Positions 29,855 through 36,733 of a DNA stretch of 64,000 nucleotides are shown here, one piece after another. Positions within the stretch are counted from its first letter, which is position 1; each line of letters starts with the position of its first letter. The notes under the pieces are model-generated. The model was given only the letters and a program-made list of their open reading frames with translations. It made no database searches and had not been told where the DNA came from. The DNA is from an uncultured Clostridia bacterium (GTDB taxonomy: Bacteria > Bacillota > Clostridia > Christensenellales > Aristaeellaceae), in the NCBI GenBank assembly GCA_947596085.1, contig CANQEW010000006.1:6977-70976 (forward strand), written 5' to 3'. A program made the position numbers and the translations under genes.

Positions 29855-31042
29855 TCAGTTTACGATCTTGTAGCCCTCCTCGGTGAGCCTGCGCCGAATC
29901 TCGCGAATCTGATCGAAGTCGCGGGTCTCCATGCCCAGGTAGAGGAAGCAGGAGGTGATGGCCATGTTCGCGTCGCTGCGCTCGTGGCGGACGTTGACGA
30001 CGTTCGCGCCGCACTCGGACACGATCTGGCTCACGCCCAGCAGCTGGCCCGGCTTGTCCTCCAGCGCGATCTGCAGCATCGTGTTGCGCCCGGCGGTCAC
30101 CAGGCCGCGCGTGATCACGCGCGAGAGGATGTTGACGTCGATGTTGCCGCCCGAGATGATGCACACCGCTTTCTTGCCTTCGATGGGCAGCTTGCCGAAC
30201 ATCGCCGCCGCCACGCTGACCGCGCCCGCGCCCTCGGCGATGAGCTTCTGCTTCTCGATCAGCGCCAGGATCGCCGCCGCGATTTCGTCCTCGCTGACGG
30301 TCACGACCTCGTCCACGTACTTGCTGACGATCTCGAAGGTCGTATCTCCCGGATGCTTGACCGCGATGCCGTCCGCGAAGGTTCGAACGGTCTCCAGCGT
30401 GATCGGCTCGCCCCGCTTCACGCTCTCCGCCATGCTGGGCGCATTCTCCGCCTGCACGCCGTAGACCTTGACGCTGGGATTGAGGTTCTTGATGGCGTAG
30501 GCCACGCCGGAGATCAATCCGCCGCCGCCCACCGGGCAGATCACCGCGTCCACGTCCGCGAGCTGGTCGAGAATCTCCAAGCCGATGGTGCCCTGACCAG
30601 CGATCACCTCATCGTCGTTGAAGGGATGAATAAAGGTCATCCCCGTCTCCTGCTGAAGCTGGCAGGCGTAGTTGTAGGCGTCGTCGTAGGCGCCCTTCAC
30701 CAGCCGCACCTCCGCGCCCAGCGCCTTGGTGGATTCCACCTTGGAGATCGGCGCGCCGTCCGGCATGCAGACGACGCTGCGAATGCCCATGCGCGACGCC
30801 GCCAGCGCCACGCCCTGGGCGTGGTTGCCTGCCGAGCAGGCCACGATGCCCGCGTCGCGCTGCTCCTGCGTCAGCTGGCTGATCTTGTAGTACGCGCCGC
30901 GCAGCTTGAAGCTGCCGGTGAGCTGAAGATTTTCGGTCTTTAAGTACAGCCCGTTCAGATTCGGGGCGTGGATGAGGTCGGTCTTGCGGGCCACCTGCTT
31001 GAGCACGAAGGCGGCGTGGTAGATTTTGTCGAGCGTGACCAT
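29855..31042 (-). CDS. ilvA: Threonine ammonia-lyase (threonine dehydratase) with a C-terminal ACT-like domain
   Basis: PLP motif SFKLRGAYYK, plus SAGNHAQGVA and GGGGLISG. Confidence 0.9.
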   Translation of the reverse strand: MVTLDKIYHAAFVLKQVARKTDLIHAPNLNGLYLKTENLQLTGSFKLRGAYYKISQLTQEQRDAGIVACSAGNHAQGVALAASRMGIRSVVCMPDGAPISKVESTKALGAEVRLVKGAYDDAYNYACQLQQETGMTFIHPFNDDEVIAGQGTIGLEILDQLADVDAVICPVGGGGLISGVAYAIKNLNPSVKVYGVQAENAPSMAESVKRGEPITLETVRTFADGIAVKHPGDTTFEIVSKYVDEVVTVSEDEIAAAILALIEKQKLIAEGAGAVSVAAAMFGKLPIEGKKAVCIISGGNIDVNILSRVITRGLVTAGRNTMLQIALEDKPGQLLGVSQIVSECGANVVNVRHERSDANMAITSCFLYLGMETRDFDQIREIRRRLTEEGYKIVN

Positions 31043-31048
31043 GATTCG

Positions 31049-31070
31049 TTATTCTCCCTCTCTCTATTTG
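31049..31070. repeat. Left copy of a 22-nt imperfect direct repeat flanking the low-GC islet
   Basis: TTATTCTCCCTCTCTCTATTTG against TTATTCTCTTCCTTTCTGTTTT at 33607-33628: 16 of 22 identical, and the first 8 are identical. Confidence 0.4.
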
Positions 31071-32083
31071 ACTGCAATGTGGTTTGTGAATAGTTCCGGA
31101 TATTTATTTTTCATGTATTCGGAGTATTTTTCCGCTCCCTTTCGATTTAAGTGGGTGGAATCTCCAAAATAGGTATTATCATAAAAACACAGGTCCGTGT
31201 TTACAGTTATTTCCGGGTAATCGCGCTGTATGCCCTTCATATAGTTAGAATAATCCAGCAGATAATTCTCATGACAAGCCTCGTAAGTTGCTTTATTCAT
31301 CGGCAGTGTATCGATAATGACGTTTATTCCTTCGTGAATGCACAACTCAATCATTTTACGAAAATAGTTGTCTAATATATCCGTCGGTTCAAAGTCCGTA
31401 TAGTCTGCCTCCGGGTTCACTGCATCACAGTATTCCAGTTTTCCAAAGCTTGCATAACCTTTGAAAGAACTCAGATTCTGATACATTTCAGCGTTAATTT
31501 TATAGCGATTTTCCCGAACCATTTTGAGAAGCGCTTTGAGGAATGTCTTTCCGTACTTGTTTACGGAATATATTCTGTATAGCAACAATTGCTTATAAAA
31601 GTCCTTTGTGATATGATCTGTATCGTCAAAAGCAGATGCAACCGTATAAATATCTTTCATTTCTGAATCGGACATTCGGTGAAAATATACGCTTCTTGTC
31701 CACAGTGTTTCGGATTCGAAAAAATGAAACGGAGCATAAGAAATAATTACCGTCTGTGGCGCATCATGGTTCCCCAGATATTCTTTAAAATAATAATAGT
31801 TTTCCAGCGGGGACGTTCCACCCAATGAAAAATTGTAAGTATCATCGGACAGAAGCCACGGACAGTATGCGGCTTTTGCCTTGGAATCTCCAATAATAAC
31901 AATGCGGTTGTAATCTGTGCTGTTTTGGACATAGTCCTTTTGCTGCTGATACATTGCGTATTCGCCGTCGAAAAAATACATAGGATATTTTGACATAGCA
32001 ATGGGTACCACTGCGGAAAAAACGATTATGGGCACCATAAATAACGCAAGTTTAAGCGTAAAGTTTTTCAGCGTTCGTTTCAT
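31064..32083 (-). CDS. SGNH/GDSL-like (DltD/AlgX-type) membrane-anchored protein, partner of the MBOAT
   Basis: N-terminal TM helix; IIGDSKAK (block I Ser), SLGG (block II) and GDSTHLN (the D-x-x-H block). GAGGTG RBS. AT-rich codons. Confidence 0.6.
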   Translation of the reverse strand: MKRTLKNFTLKLALFMVPIIVFSAVVPIAMSKYPMYFFDGEYAMYQQQKDYVQNSTDYNRIVIIGDSKAKAAYCPWLLSDDTYNFSLGGTSPLENYYYFKEYLGNHDAPQTVIISYAPFHFFESETLWTRSVYFHRMSDSEMKDIYTVASAFDDTDHITKDFYKQLLLYRIYSVNKYGKTFLKALLKMVRENRYKINAEMYQNLSSFKGYASFGKLEYCDAVNPEADYTDFEPTDILDNYFRKMIELCIHEGINVIIDTLPMNKATYEACHENYLLDYSNYMKGIQRDYPEITVNTDLCFYDNTYFGDSTHLNRKGAEKYSEYMKNKYPELFTNHIAVK

Positions 32084-32097
32084 CCGGTATCACCTCA

Positions 32098-33603
32098 CTA
32101 AAACTGAAAATAAACAAACTCAGAACCCGTTTGAAGCGAGAAGAAAAACACCAAGAATATGGCAAGATAATATAGCGTCCATCTGATCGCGATGGATCGT
32201 TTCGTCACCAGTTCCTGATTGTTCTTTCCCGCATATTGCCTGAGGTCGCAGACGATTTGCAAACAAATAATCAGGCAGACAACAAGAAATGTTTTCGATC
32301 CACCAAAATCGGGCATGCAATTCCGCAAAGCGCTGAGTTGATTTCCAATTCCGTTCCAGATGAATGCTCTTTTATACATGTAAAAAGTTTTTGCGAGACT
32401 GTCTGCACGGAAAGCAATGTTGCCTATGCTTACCAGAATAAATGTCCGCGCGATCTGGAACGCATTCCAGATGATGTTTTCGTCCTGAATGCGAAGCTTA
32501 TGTTTGATTTTAATAAAAGCAGGTTTGAATACCTGTCCTGAAACAATGACAATCCAGAAAAACCAACCCTCGCCGATCATGTATTTCCAGGAACTTCCGT
32601 GCCAGATTCCCATCAGCGTCCAAACCACAAACATGGCGACATAGGTCGGTATTTTTTGCGCAGCTTTTCCCCATTTGTTTTTAAGATTTTTGCTGGCTTT
32701 TTTGAACGCTTTCGTCCACAAAATATGGTACATCACATAGTTCCTCAGCCAGGCGCCGAGGGTTATATGCCATCGTTCCCAGAATTCCTGCACGCTTTTC
32801 GACAGGAATGGAACATTGAAGTTTTCGGGAAGAATGATACCGAAACACTTCGATATGCCGATGATAATATCCATACATCCCGAGAAATCAAAGAACAGTT
32901 GAATCATGAAGATACATGCTGAAATTAAAACCCACGGGCCCGAGAACAGATCCGTATTGTCAAACATTGCGCTCACAATTATTGCGATGTGGTCTGCCAC
33001 AATCACTTTTTTGAGGAGTCCCCATAGCGCGCGGCGCATACCGGACAATACTCTATCGTAATCAAAGCGATGCTCTTCAAAGAGCTGTGTGCCGGTCTGA
33101 GAATACGTGCATATTGGGCCCGAAACCATTTGCGGGAAATACGTGACAAACAGCAATAGTTTAAGCGGATTCTTTTCCGGCTCAAATACTCCTTCATAGC
33201 AGTCGATAAGATAGGAGATAACCTGGAGAGTATAATAACTGATCGCCAGGGGAGCTATCCAATGAACGTCGGCTACGTTCTTCTTTATCCAATAATTGAA
33301 CGTACCAATAAACATATTCGTATATTTGAGGACGGCAAGCAATCCGACATTCAGAACTAGTACAAGCACTAAGGCAAGACGCTTTTTCCGTTTGCTGTCG
33401 GTTTTTTTGAAATACAATGCCGCGCCCCAAACCGTAAACACGCTTACCAGAATATAAATAAACGTATAGGGTTTTGCGGTCACAAAGTAAAAGATCAAGC
33501 TGTCCGCCAAGAGCACAAGCCACTGAACCTTGTGCGGTACGCGCCAGTAGATATATAAACTAATGCCAACAAAGGCAAAATAGATAAATGATGTGATATC
33601 CAA
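32098..33603 (-). CDS. MBOAT-family O-acyltransferase (AlgI/DltB/PatA-like)
   Basis: 501 aa, polytopic. FWERWHITLGAWLRNYV and the WHG region carry the conserved MBOAT His. TTG start at 33603 follows AGGAAGAG. Confidence 0.9.
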   Translation of the reverse strand: MDITSFIYFAFVGISLYIYWRVPHKVQWLVLLADSLIFYFVTAKPYTFIYILVSVFTVWGAALYFKKTDSKRKKRLALVLVLVLNVGLLAVLKYTNMFIGTFNYWIKKNVADVHWIAPLAISYYTLQVISYLIDCYEGVFEPEKNPLKLLLFVTYFPQMVSGPICTYSQTGTQLFEEHRFDYDRVLSGMRRALWGLLKKVIVADHIAIIVSAMFDNTDLFSGPWVLISACIFMIQLFFDFSGCMDIIIGISKCFGIILPENFNVPFLSKSVQEFWERWHITLGAWLRNYVMYHILWTKAFKKASKNLKNKWGKAAQKIPTYVAMFVVWTLMGIWHGSSWKYMIGEGWFFWIVIVSGQVFKPAFIKIKHKLRIQDENIIWNAFQIARTFILVSIGNIAFRADSLAKTFYMYKRAFIWNGIGNQLSALRNCMPDFGGSKTFLVVCLIICLQIVCDLRQYAGKNNQELVTKRSIAIRWTLYYLAIFLVFFFSLQTGSEFVYFQF

Positions 33604-33606
33604 GTA

Positions 33607-33628
33607 TTATTCTCTTCCTTTCTGTTTT
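33607..33628. repeat. Right copy of the 22-nt imperfect direct repeat flanking the islet
   Basis: See the feature at 31049-31070. This copy overlaps the last codons and the stop of the DUF815 gene. Confidence 0.4.
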
Positions 33629-34920
33629 CCCGCGATATAATTGATAAACTGCTGCGCCGTGCGGCCAGATATGCCGCCGTGGCGAATCTCCCAGGTGTTG
33701 GCCGCCGCGATGAGCTTGGCGTCGTCCATCTCGACGCCTTCGCGCTTCGCGATGCCGCGCACGATGTCGTGGTACTGCCGGCGGTCGGGGTTCGAGTAGT
33801 TGATGGCGCAGCCGAAGCGCGCCGCCAGCGACAGCCGCTCCTCCATCGTATCCGAGCGATGCACGTCGCCGTTGAACTCCATATCGTTCCGGTCGTTCCA
33901 CGTCTCGCGAATCAGATGCCGCCGGTTGGACGTGGCGACGATCATCACGTTGTCCGGCCGCGTCTCCACGCCGCCCTCGATCACGGCCTTGAGGAACTTG
34001 TACTCCACTTCGTTCTCCTCAAAGGACAGGTCGTCGATGAAGAGTATAAAGCGGTAGTTGCGGTTTTTGATGCGGGCGATCACGTCCGAGAGCAGATGGA
34101 ACTGATGCTTGTACAGCTCGATCATGCGCAGGCCCCGGGACTGGTATTCGTTCAGCGTGGCCTTTACGGAGGTGGACTTGCCCGTGCCCGCGTCGCCGTA
34201 GAGCAGCATGTTGTTGCAGGGCCGCCCGGAGACGAACGCCTCCACGTTTTCACGCAGCTGCGCCTTCTGCGGCTCGTAACCGATCAGGTCGTCGAGCACC
34301 ACCGCGTCCACGTTGTTGATGGCCAGGAATTCGGCGCCGCCCTTCTTTTCGCGGATGCGGAACGCCCGGTTCAGGCCGAACATGCCCACGCCCCAGTCGC
34401 GGTAGTGGCCGGTGACGAGATCGAAGATCTCCTGCGCGTCCTTCGCCCGCTCAATCGCCGCGCTGAGTTCGCGCACGCGCTCGCTGACGCTGCGATAGTA
34501 GAGCTGCGCGCGCTTGGGAATGGCGCGGTAGTGGGTGAGCACGGTGAAGCAGTCGATGCCGAGGTCGGCCTCGATGGGCGCGAAGTCGAAGTCGAACAGC
34601 TCGCGGAAGATGGCGAAGTCGGCCAGTGCGAAGTGGTTGACAGAGCCGTCGCTGGCGCCCGCGCGTTCGGCGGTGAGGCTGAACGAGTTCTCGTGGGTGA
34701 CGAGCACGAAGGTCAGGTAGTTGTGCCAGAGGTTCGTGTCGAAGCCGTAGAGCGTCGCCACGTCCAGTATGCGCTTGACTTCGGCGTATATCCTGCGCAC
34801 CAGCTCCGGCTTCTCGCACGCGCCGTGCTCCCAGTCGTAGAAGATGTCCGACAGCTTCATCAAAATGCTGTCCGGCTCCAGGCTGCCGTAGAGCAGCAGC
34901 CGCGCGGTTTCGCGGTACAT
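33607..34920 (-). CDS. DUF815-type P-loop ATPase (AAA-like); function unknown
   Basis: Walker A LLYGDAGTGKST, Walker B FILFIDDLSF, then ATSNRRHL. Confidence 0.8.
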   Translation of the reverse strand: MYRETARLLLYGSLEPDSILMKLSDIFYDWEHGACEKPELVRRIYAEVKRILDVATLYGFDTNLWHNYLTFVLVTHENSFSLTAERAGASDGSVNHFALADFAIFRELFDFDFAPIEADLGIDCFTVLTHYRAIPKRAQLYYRSVSERVRELSAAIERAKDAQEIFDLVTGHYRDWGVGMFGLNRAFRIREKKGGAEFLAINNVDAVVLDDLIGYEPQKAQLRENVEAFVSGRPCNNMLLYGDAGTGKSTSVKATLNEYQSRGLRMIELYKHQFHLLSDVIARIKNRNYRFILFIDDLSFEENEVEYKFLKAVIEGGVETRPDNVMIVATSNRRHLIRETWNDRNDMEFNGDVHRSDTMEERLSLAARFGCAINYSNPDRRQYHDIVRGIAKREGVEMDDAKLIAAANTWEIRHGGISGRTAQQFINYIAGKQKGRE

Positions 34921-35757: not shown

Positions 35758-36609
35758 TCATTCCTTAACCAGTTCGCCGACCATCGCCCCGCCGATGATG
35801 CAGAGCGCGCCCACGATTTGAAGCGTCGTCATTTGCTCGCCCAACAGAAGCGCGGCGAATACGACGGCGGACAGCGGCTCGAGGTAGCCGCAGATGGCGA
35901 CCGTCTGCACCGGCAGCTTCGCCAGCGGGGAGAAGTACAGATAGCAGCCGATGCCCGTGTTGACGACGCCGAGGACGAGAATCCATCCCCAGGCCCCGCT
36001 GGGAACGTGGATGACGAACGCCTGCTTCACCCCGACAAAGACCACGACCGTCAGAAAGCTGACCGTCAGCTGGATGACCGAGTTCTCCAGGCCGGTGATC
36101 CCCTCGGACTTGCGGTTGAGCGTCACCATGAAGGCGTACATGATTGCCGACATCGCCCCGCAGAACAAGCCCCAGGCATTGCCCGCGCCCGCCAGCCTTC
36201 CGTTGACGAGCAGGATGCCGATCAGGACGATTGCGAAGCCCGCGATCTTGGGCTTCGTCAGCCGCTTCTGAAACAGCAGCGGCGATAGAATCATCACGAT
36301 GACCGGGCCGCAGTAGTACAACAGCGACGCAAAGCTCACGCCGATCTGCTGATAAGCTTCATAGAGGAACATTCAACTGGTTCCCATGGCGACGCCGGAG
36401 AGTGCGATCAGAAGCGCGTCCCTTCCGTGTCCCTTCAGGTGAAACCTGTTCTTCCCCAACAGAAACAGCGCGATCAGCAGGATGCTGCCGATCATGGTTC
36501 GGAGAAAGACGATCTCATAGCTGCCGAGGGGAATATTGCTTGCGACGATGCCGTTCAATCCAAACAGCAGCAGCGCGCAGAGATATTTTGTAAGGGCTTT
36601 CTTATCCAT
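35758..36609 (-). pseudogene. EamA/DMT-family transporter interrupted by one in-frame TGA (codon 36375-36373)
   Basis: Track ORFs 36373..36642 and 35758..36372 are contiguous in one frame: ...SGVAMGTS-TGA-MFLYEAYQQIGVSFASLLYYCGPVIV.... Together they make a typical 10-TM EamA protein of about 283 aa. Confidence 0.75.
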
Positions 36610-36733
36610 GGCTTGTTGTATCCGTCTCGTTCGAACGCACAACGCCCGGAAAACAGACGCAGAAATCTGGCGCTCGGACTTATGGCGCCAGATTTCGCGC
36701 TTCGAACCAAGTCGCCTTTAGAAACGCAACGCA

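Follow-up and report, generated by a model that had tools for sequence, protein, structure and literature searches.

We report a small foreign islet in a 64-kb stretch of DNA (contig CANQEW010000006.1; hereafter the window) from a rabbit-gut Clostridia bacterium with a genomic GC content of 62%. The low-GC block that lies between the gene for a DUF815 AAA-type ATPase and ilvA, encoding threonine ammonia-lyase, is an insertion at the DUF815/ilvA junction. The inserted fragment of 2,558 bp (GC 0.411) carries one gene for an MBOAT acyltransferase and one for a partner protein with a predicted DltD-like SGNH fold. Very probably, this is a foreign fragment that entered by illegitimate recombination at the level of microhomology and brought in an MBOAT-SGNH acyl relay. 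A sequence-only reading of the window had already described an MBOAT plus SGNH/DltD-like pair as horizontally acquired and wedged between the two host genes, a view now borne out by empty sites in relatives, by a composition like that of low-GC relatives of the pair, and by DltD as the best structural match of the partner. The islet offers a base-pair-resolved natural case in which an uncultured gut bacterium gained putative surface-modification genes without mobile-element machinery, the fragment filling a tight junction, giving the upstream gene a new stop codon and sparing the ribosome-binding site (RBS) of the downstream gene.

Composition, empty sites and boundaries of the islet

In 300-nt sliding windows, the GC content is 0.37-0.46 across about 31100-33650 and 0.59-0.66 on both sides, in agreement with the 37-47% that the sequence-only reading had counted by hand for the islet; its figure of about 70% for the ilvA flank was too high, the computed value for the ilvA gene being 0.644. 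The islet is the sole part of the window in which a 1-kb bin has a GC content below 0.57. A switch in codon usage, also noted before, is confirmed by the GC content at third codon positions (GC3), which is 0.524 in the MBOAT gene and 0.426 in the partner gene versus 0.917 in ilvA, 0.895 in DUF815 and 0.936 in ilvC (0.43-0.52 in the islet versus 0.90-0.94 in the flanking genes). The GC3 of the insert lies within the range of its low-GC relatives.

The islet is real and not an assembly artefact. Four contigs, one from each of four separate ENA assemblies, carry the order DUF815-MBOAT-partner-ilvA at 99.8-100% identity with the window, and all four encode the exact window MBOAT protein. Unitigs from X1, a rabbit gut metagenome (X-numbers denote rabbit-gut sequencing runs, and L-numbers the loci or contigs compared), extend without mismatch over 30609-31828 and 33322-34132, and so across both junctions.

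Relatives were compared for adjacency of DUF815 and ilvA, as the sequence-only reading had proposed, and empty sites were found at every phylogenetic depth sampled. Among 80 species-representative loci with a DUF815 homologue (61-77% identity), ilvA follows DUF815 after 7-35 nt in 18, and the pair is present in none. In the closest relatives found, L092-L094 (DUF815 84-87% identical, 61-62% GC), ilvA or the next gene begins 1 nt past the DUF815 stop in L092 and L093, and the L094 contig ends with an ATG at the position matching the downstream start of these two; the ilvA product of L092 is identical to that of the window at 364 of 395 residues (92%). Runs X5, X6, X8, X9 and X10 cover the flanks at a depth of 20-170 and the insert at about 0-6. 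At least eight different empty-site contigs from these runs join 31043-31063 to 33622-33641, skipping 2558-2592 nt with 0-35 other letters between. Some rabbit-gut contigs join 31059-31063 to 33622-33624, skipping 2558-2562 nt, and one X6 contig seemingly goes from 31063 straight to 33622, 2 nt fitting either side and other letters possibly lying between. From these joins, the inserted DNA is therefore 31064-33621.

On the coding strand, the X6 empty site reads ...GGA AAA CAG/AGA GAG GGA GAA TAA CGAATC ATG (the ATG of ilvA; the slash marks the joint), and an abundant X9 allele reads ...TTC ATC AAC TAC ATC GCA GGA AAA CAA GTA GAG GGA GAA TAA CGAATC ATG. The junction is very variable among relatives, even close ones, and the pair occurs in the window's lineage only. 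That the low-GC block is an old, vertically inherited arrangement that has not ameliorated, or a mis-assembly of two organisms, is extremely improbable. The low coverage of the metagenome behind the window (about 3-6x) leaves such explanations as a bare possibility; against them stand the lack of the pair at this site in relatives at every distance for which downstream sequence is available, and the four assemblies together with the mismatch-free unitigs across both junctions.

Features of the islet and of the host genes next to it are collected in Table 1.

Table 1 Coordinates of the islet, its genes and predicted functional residues, and the flanking host genes in the window
Feature	Position	Strand	Remarks
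DUF815 AAA-type ATPase, upstream host gene	33607-34920	-	PF05673, E=1.7e-91
MBOAT acyltransferase, 501 aa, TTG start	32098-33603	-	PF03062, E=5.8e-12
Partner protein, 339 aa	31064-32083	-	Open reading frame (ORF); DltD-like SGNH fold in model
ilvA, threonine ammonia-lyase, single ACT-domain type	29855-31042	-	TIGR01127, 486 bits versus cut-off 378.75
Inserted fragment	31064-33621	-	Boundaries good to about +/-3 nt
MBOAT His335 codon	32599-32601	-	Predicted catalytic histidine, context GIWHGSS
MBOAT FVYFQF hexapeptide, residues 496-501	32101-32118	-	Putative FXYXXF acyl-shuttle motif, Tyr498
Partner predicted catalytic residues	Ser67 31883-31885; Asp308 31160-31162; His311 31151-31153	-	
Insert left end, AAAGGAAGAGAATAA+TAC	33604-33621	-	DUF815 last four codons plus stop, MBOAT RBS
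Native DUF815-stop/ilvA RBS module, AGAGAGGGAGAATAACGAATC	31043-31063	-	Kept upstream of ilvA ATG
Partner last 8 codons plus stop, FTNHIAVK-stop	31064-31090	-	DUF815-tail-like

Compared with a classical genomic island, the islet has the compositional anomaly and the empty site in relatives; there is no integrase or transposase, no tRNA in 64 kb, and no perfect flanking direct repeat (27 of 42 nt match). The absence of an integrase, a transposase and a tRNA had been remarked on before, and it stands: no integrase or transposase was found in the insert or among the neighbouring called genes (AzlC/D, MatE, MntP, EamA and DUF169), and no tRNA in the whole window. The islet resembles integrase-free islets attributed to illegitimate or homology-facilitated illegitimate recombination in its sharp composition borders, in lacking a recombinase, a tRNA and any perfect target duplication, in its microhomology of about 2 nt at the joints, and in the clean empty site that relatives have. 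It differs from them in that the fragment landed in the last codons of a gene yet supplied a new tail and stop codon, and in that the joined ends of the insert resemble the target. Insertion of a small integrase-free islet is a known kind of gene transfer, here unusually well documented; we regard the result as solid and not as surprising.

Two other vehicles were considered and rejected. Insertion as an integron cassette or by site-specific recombination was set aside because inspection revealed no attC-like palindrome, no GTT core at the joints and no integrase nearby. For a plasmid or phage, tblastn identities did not exceed 30% with plasmids and 36% with phage-labelled gut contigs.

Not one nucleotide of the insert differs in the three other assemblies, and the insertion came after the split from lineages with flanks about 85-97% identical. 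The earlier description of the islet as recently acquired holds in this sense, the insert being younger than that split and free of polymorphism in four samples; 'recent' is a relative term only, and even the nearest sampled kin of the cargo stand at 68-73% DNA identity. The flanks of L082-L084 carry 7-12 differences per contig, mostly synonymous and in tight clusters in DUF815 and ilvA (33795-33928, 34847-34864 and 29890-29912). Recombination with abundant co-resident relatives could have left these clusters as patches, or they could reflect mixing in low-coverage assemblies.

Junction modules, joined ends and route of entry

The two borders of the islet carry similar 22-mers, and the sequence-only reading had suggested that the insertion duplicated or recombined the DUF815-stop/ilvA-RBS junction. 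The similarity itself was confirmed, with 16 of 22 positions and the first 8 identical. The right copy of GAGAATAA (31049-31056) is part of a native module, AGGGAGAATAACGAATC-ATG, which is present in empty-site contigs of X5, X6 and X9 and consists of the DUF815 stop and the ilvA RBS. The left copy of GAGAATAA (33607-33614) lies inside the insert, and relatives that carry the pair in a longer cassette (described below) have GGAGGAATAATTT before the same TTG, comprising the stop of their upstream gene and the MBOAT RBS. Empty-site alleles part from the window sequence after ...GGAAAACA(G/A) at 33622. With the right copy native and the left copy insert-borne, these are therefore two stop/RBS modules of separate origin and there was no target-site duplication, so that the suggested duplication has to be abandoned. 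The real junctions lie 8-15 nt from the 22-mers and show a microhomology of about 2 nt.

In the window, DUF815 ends in four codons and a stop, AAA GGA AGA GAA TAA (KGRE-stop), that are foreign. The native C-terminus, ..GKQ REGE-stop or VEGE-stop in relatives, has become ..GKQ KGRE-stop. We propose that the AT-rich fragment entered the last codons of DUF815, which abuts or overlaps the ilvA start in relatives, and that it would have done so by illegitimate recombination at about 2 nt of microhomology with no element-encoded recombinase. The stop/RBS module of the fragment now terminates DUF815, and the native RBS still stands before ilvA; transcription towards ilvA would have to read through the cargo.

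One detail is unexplained by this route, namely that the joined ends of the insert resemble the target. Read across the joint, the ends give TTC ACA AAC CAC ATT GCA GTC AAA TAG/AAA GGA AGA GAA TAA, which is FTNHIAVK-stop-KGRE-stop in frame; the target is TTT ATC AAT TAT ATC GCG GGA AAA CAG/AGA GAG GGA GAA TAA, which is FINYIAGKQREGE-stop. In register and with the frame kept, 27 of the 42 nt are identical between the two (31064-31090 versus 33607-33648). When the shared 8-mer is left out, 19 of 34 positions match (shuffle p=5e-4), a level reached by a fraction of only 8e-5 of the 34-mers in the window. The likeness extends to the encoded protein: DUF815 proteins end in ...QQF-[IV]N[HY][ILY]AG..., and the partner tail is alike and in frame, while all 52 partner homologues stop 0-6 residues past a conserved Phe and none has N[HY]IA.

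The fragment may have entered as a circle by a single (Campbell-type) crossover at AAA-YAG-A, in the middle of a 42-nt mimic of the DUF815 tail, although we hold this to be rather unlikely. A match between joined ends and target is the expected trace of such a crossover between circle and target, with the crossover in the middle; FTNHIAVK fits the motif F[IV]N[HY][ILY]AG of DUF815, and none of the 52 partner homologues has it; and the left 15 nt of the insert are nearer to the native target (11 of 15) than to the end of the relatives' upstream gene (7 of 15; both counted by inspection). On the other hand, the insert has no recombinase, and no DUF815 neighbour, the possible source of a foreign tail, was found at any of the roughly 90 MBOAT loci sampled; chance similarity is inflated, too, as both sequences are stop/RBS modules rich in purines. 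The clean empty site is explained equally well by a linear fragment with 2 nt of microhomology. Divergence in situ of a duplicated DUF815 tail was also considered and rejected, since a copy divergence of 36% is incompatible with an unpolymorphic insert and empty-site flanks about 85-97% identical.

The MBOAT-partner pair, related cassettes and the acyl donor

The MBOAT protein is nearest to DltB. Its TTG start is conserved in all close relatives, and it scores 164.6 bits with the DltB model TIGR04091, under the cut-off of 375. A phmmer alignment with DltB (6BUG, E=3e-21) covers residues 119-357 including the WHxxL region, and places His335 (GIWHG) on the histidine of the DltB WHG motif. The AlphaFold model has a predicted local distance difference test score (pLDDT) of 88.8, and its best folds in the PDB are those of DltB (8JEM/6BUG, E~1e-13, template-modelling (TM) score 0.60-0.78). 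It has about 100 additional residues of C-terminal helices ending in FVYFQF, the tail being flexible in the model (pLDDT <50 for residues 493-501). His335, Tyr498 and Phe501 are invariant among 24 homologues. Judged by its sequence, FVYFQF is the FXYXXF acyl-shuttle motif. Dlt systems carry this motif on DltX; in PatA it is part of the MBOAT itself, and there its Tyr is auto-acylated and then passes the acyl group to the SGNH partner (PMC12148441).

The partner is modelled as a membrane-anchored extracytoplasmic SGNH protein with a DltD-like fold and a predicted Ser67-Asp308-His311 triad. The model (pLDDT 93.9) has an N-terminal helix at residues 2-32, and the top PDB folds found by Foldseek are DltD 6O93 (E=1.9e-5), then 6PFX, 7DXM and 3BMA, then other SGNH hydrolases. 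Invariant in 35 homologues are G65-D66-S67, G88, N263, D308 and H311 (DxxH). The protein itself has no Pfam or NCBIfam match, with Pfam searched even at E<=10; 13 of the 35 homologues match PF07611 (DUF1574, best E=2.9e-9), an SGNH-clan family with no known activity (PMC9487903), and one matches DltD (PF04914, E=3.6e-4), a match not seen for the window protein. The partner family is large, with 7,201 representatives at 50% identity (E<=1e-3).

By sequence and structure, the two proteins have the features of a bacterial MBOAT-SGNH acyltransferase pair, with an MBOAT fold and an invariant His, a fused FXYXXF motif, and an adjacent anchored SGNH protein with Ser-Asp-His; they do not fit the Dlt pathway proper. 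PatA/PatB of Gram-negative peptidoglycan O-acetylation, AlgI/AlgJ/AlgX and Bacillus PatA1/PatB1 are likewise two-gene systems of an MBOAT and a membrane-anchored SGNH transferase, with the invariant His, the fused FXYXXF and the Ser-Asp-His triad, and presumably with a relay from thioester to Tyr to Ser to polymer (PMC12148441). Unlike them, the window partner does not belong to PatB, AlgX or DHHW but to a large unannotated family remotely related to DUF1574, with DltD as its best fold, and the window MBOAT is nearest to DltB and has orthologues that are carrier-linked and not free-standing users of acyl-CoA.

The Dlt system of teichoic acid D-alanylation (DltA, DltC, DltB, DltX and DltD) offers the best sequence and structure match for the MBOAT in DltB, and the best structure match for the partner in DltD, the partner also having an N-terminal membrane anchor; relatives of the window pair, like Dlt, have a small carrier protein just upstream. 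It differs in that the shuttle motif of the window is fused and not on a DltX microprotein, that the loader of the relatives is of FkbH type and not an adenylating ligase, and that the DltB model score is 164.6 versus a cut-off of 375. No match to a carrier protein (DltC) was found in six frames, and DltA, looked for in adjacent ORFs only, was not found there.

The nearest homologues of the pair (MBOAT 74-77%, partner 55-58% protein identity) are encoded on contigs with 41-48% GC, most of which lie in the ERZ27249xxx run of ENA accessions that includes three of the window's own contigs. Their DNA is collinear with the insert from 9 nt upstream of the TTG to about 31090-31100, with 68-73% identity in the tested contigs L085-L091, whose GC content is 41-45%. 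Fragments from X9 are at least 88% identical to parts of the insert, and one runs upstream into L085-type sequence. The search for a donor lineage proposed by the sequence-only reading thus yielded low-GC relatives of the pair, and the donor itself is not among them.

Wherever the upstream context of close relatives is visible, the pair ends an FkbH-carrier cassette. In L086-L088, this is a four-gene unit of FkbH (PF21211 plus a HAD phosphatase region), an 82-aa PP-binding protein, MBOAT and partner (L086:5872-10509). In L085 (417-10515), seven extra genes stand between carrier and MBOAT, for a GcvH-like protein, a pyridine-nucleotide disulfide oxidoreductase, LplA, two HGD-D subunits, a BcrAD activator and a glyoxalase-fold protein; the locus looks like a carrier-protein-fed MBOAT pathway with on-carrier tailoring. 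The end of this longer version, with HGD/BcrAD genes before the pair, is visible in L089-L091 and L095-L097. Among 80 more distant metagenome MBOAT loci (L098-L177), FkbH lies within 8 kb in 21 and an acyl-carrier protein (ACP) in 25, and carrier or FkbH often stands immediately before the MBOAT.

The window pair shares with these cassettes orthologous genes in the same order, the TTG start, the layout of the upstream stop/RBS and collinear DNA; it differs in having no loader, no carrier and, compared with the L085 type, no HGD-D/BcrAD/GcvH/LplA/glyoxalase tailoring genes in 64 kb. The most fitting description is that of a relay half detached from an FkbH/carrier-fed cassette. We found no published description of FkbH-carrier-MBOAT cassettes of low-GC gut Clostridia, and no paper linking FkbH with MBOAT/DltB, with envelope acylation or, in a relevant way, with teichoic acids. 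The finding points to such cassettes in co-resident low-GC gut Clostridia, and this link, outside the window, is its most interesting one.

A different partner was observed in L089 (2112-4923), L090 and L091, in which an MBOAT 75% identical to that of the window is paired with a 319-aa protein that has a weak DltD Pfam match and no similarity to the window partner. Behind the L089-type pair come a Transposase_mut fragment, a ParE/RelB pair and a gene for Schlafen/AlbA_2. This MBOAT lineage therefore shows both a swapping of partners and a mobile context.

In analogy to PatA/PatB and DltB/DltX/DltD, we propose a three-step relay. His335 would take an acyl group from a phosphopantetheine thioester in the cytoplasm and transfer it to Tyr498, on the external side of the membrane; Ser67 of the DltD-like partner, as part of the predicted Ser67-Asp308-His311 triad, would then accept it; and the partner would finally esterify a hydroxyl of a cell-wall polymer. 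As the closest relatives end cassettes that start with an FkbH loader and an 82-aa carrier, the ancestral donor was most likely an acyl-carrier protein. For the present situation, we place roughly equal weight on an unlinked carrier protein, on acyl-CoA and on an inert pair.

An inert pair would have been cut off from its FkbH loader and carrier, and would persist as it is recent and does not block read-through into ilvA. We regard this as possible though doubtful. It would fit with the carrier-protein cassette context of every close relative whose upstream region is visible, with the window having neither loader nor carrier, with the zero polymorphism of the insert across four samples, which leaves no time for decay, and with a partner C-terminus altered by the insertion event. 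It fits less well with two intact AT-rich ORFs (1,506 and 1,020 nt) in which the catalytic residues and the shuttle motif are all present. Moreover, FkbH and ACP are likewise missing from the vicinity of over half of the 80 distant MBOAT loci, and unlinked or other donors are therefore common.

Acyl-CoA and acyl-ACP present the same phosphopantetheine thioester, and the pair could work without a carrier. As a stand-alone O-acetyltransferase using acyl-CoA (probably acetyl-CoA), it would act like carrier-independent PatA/PatB or AlgI/AlgJ, an explanation to which we give somewhat less credence than to inertness. The MBOAT is of the PatA/AlgI type in its length of about 500 aa, with FXYXXF fused on extra C-terminal helices and no separate DltX, and fused-motif MBOATs of this kind are stated to use acyl-CoA (PMC12148441). 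Against this, it is nearest by sequence and fold to the carrier-protein-dependent DltB, and a carrier-protein gene directly precedes those of its orthologues at 74-77% identity; ACP-linked fused-motif MBOATs therefore exist.

A more far-reaching combination would make the pair an active stand-alone offshoot of an undescribed class of MBOAT-SGNH systems with FkbH-loaded three-carbon hydroxy-acyl groups, supplied by an unlinked carrier or switched to acyl-CoA, expressed by read-through towards ilvA, and delivered as a promoterless circular cassette targeted to the junction. All parts holding together strikes us as quite improbable. If they did, the run of genes may start at the ilvBNC leader, tying surface acylation to branched-chain amino-acid supply, and the likeness of the joined ends to the DUF815 tail would mean a circular cassette that targets DUF815/ilvA.

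Several results weigh against the preferred reading of a foreign fragment that brought in an acyl relay. Neither FkbH nor a carrier-protein homologue was detected in the six frames of the 64-kb window by tblastn, and profile hidden Markov models built from 24 FkbH and 28 ACP sequences found none in it at E<=10, so that the pair may be without a donor and inert. The partner resembles DltD at the level of fold alone (TM 0.40-0.45), single-sequence and profile searches of the PDB with it returned nothing, DltD included, and its C-terminal tail (...PELF-TNHIAVK-stop) is abnormal. The true donor lineage is unsampled, the best DNA identity being 73%. A scan for promoters and terminators showed no terminator-like element between the genes, but its counts equalled the level in shuffled sequence and it has no discriminating power.

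If the preferred reading is right, the relay half of a Dlt-like system was moved without its loader and carrier, a natural experiment on donor change in MBOAT-SGNH systems. For the organism, the islet could mean an altered surface chemistry in a single lineage that has many close relatives in the rabbit gut; surface chemistry bears on resistance to lysozyme and cationic peptides, on phage receptors and on immune recognition.

Host operon and neighbouring genes

The genes from ilvC to ilvA are all co-directional, with ilvA as the last gene of the run; beyond it, AzlD/AzlC lie on the other strand and converge on ilvA, in accordance with the earlier statement that the run ends in ilvA. The gaps are 3 nt between DUF815 and MBOAT (33604-33606), 14 nt between MBOAT and partner, and 21 nt between partner and ilvA (31043-31063), the first and last as previously given, and every gene retains an RBS in front. 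With co-directional genes, such short gaps and the RBS kept, it is reasonable to infer read-through from DUF815 into ilvA. Co-transcription with the host operon, and with it the capture of expression of the pair, is suggested on the same footing by gene arrangement alone.

Both in the closest relatives and in 18 of the 80 species-representative Clostridia loci, DUF815 stands directly before ilvA or overlaps it, the distance being 1-35 nt, and ilvC lies just upstream of DUF815 in the window and in L002. Such a conserved, translationally coupled neighbourhood hints at a role of DUF815 tied to branched-chain amino-acid synthesis. Loci with a junction of DUF815 end and ilvA start are L004-L014, L018, L019, L022-L024, L030, L063, L092 and L093. 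The nearest GTDB representatives, L001-L003 (DUF815 75-77% identical, 62-65% GC), have no ilvA in the available 2-6 kb downstream; in L002 (7330-8745), an NYN/OST-HTH ribonuclease-like gene and a thioesterase gene follow DUF815, with ilvC directly upstream. The downstream neighbour of DUF815 has thus been swapped out more than once.

Upstream of DUF169, the EamA transporter gene (35758-36642) appears as two ORFs of 89 aa and 204 aa in one frame, and the same split EamA gene calls recur in the independent assemblies L081 and L082.

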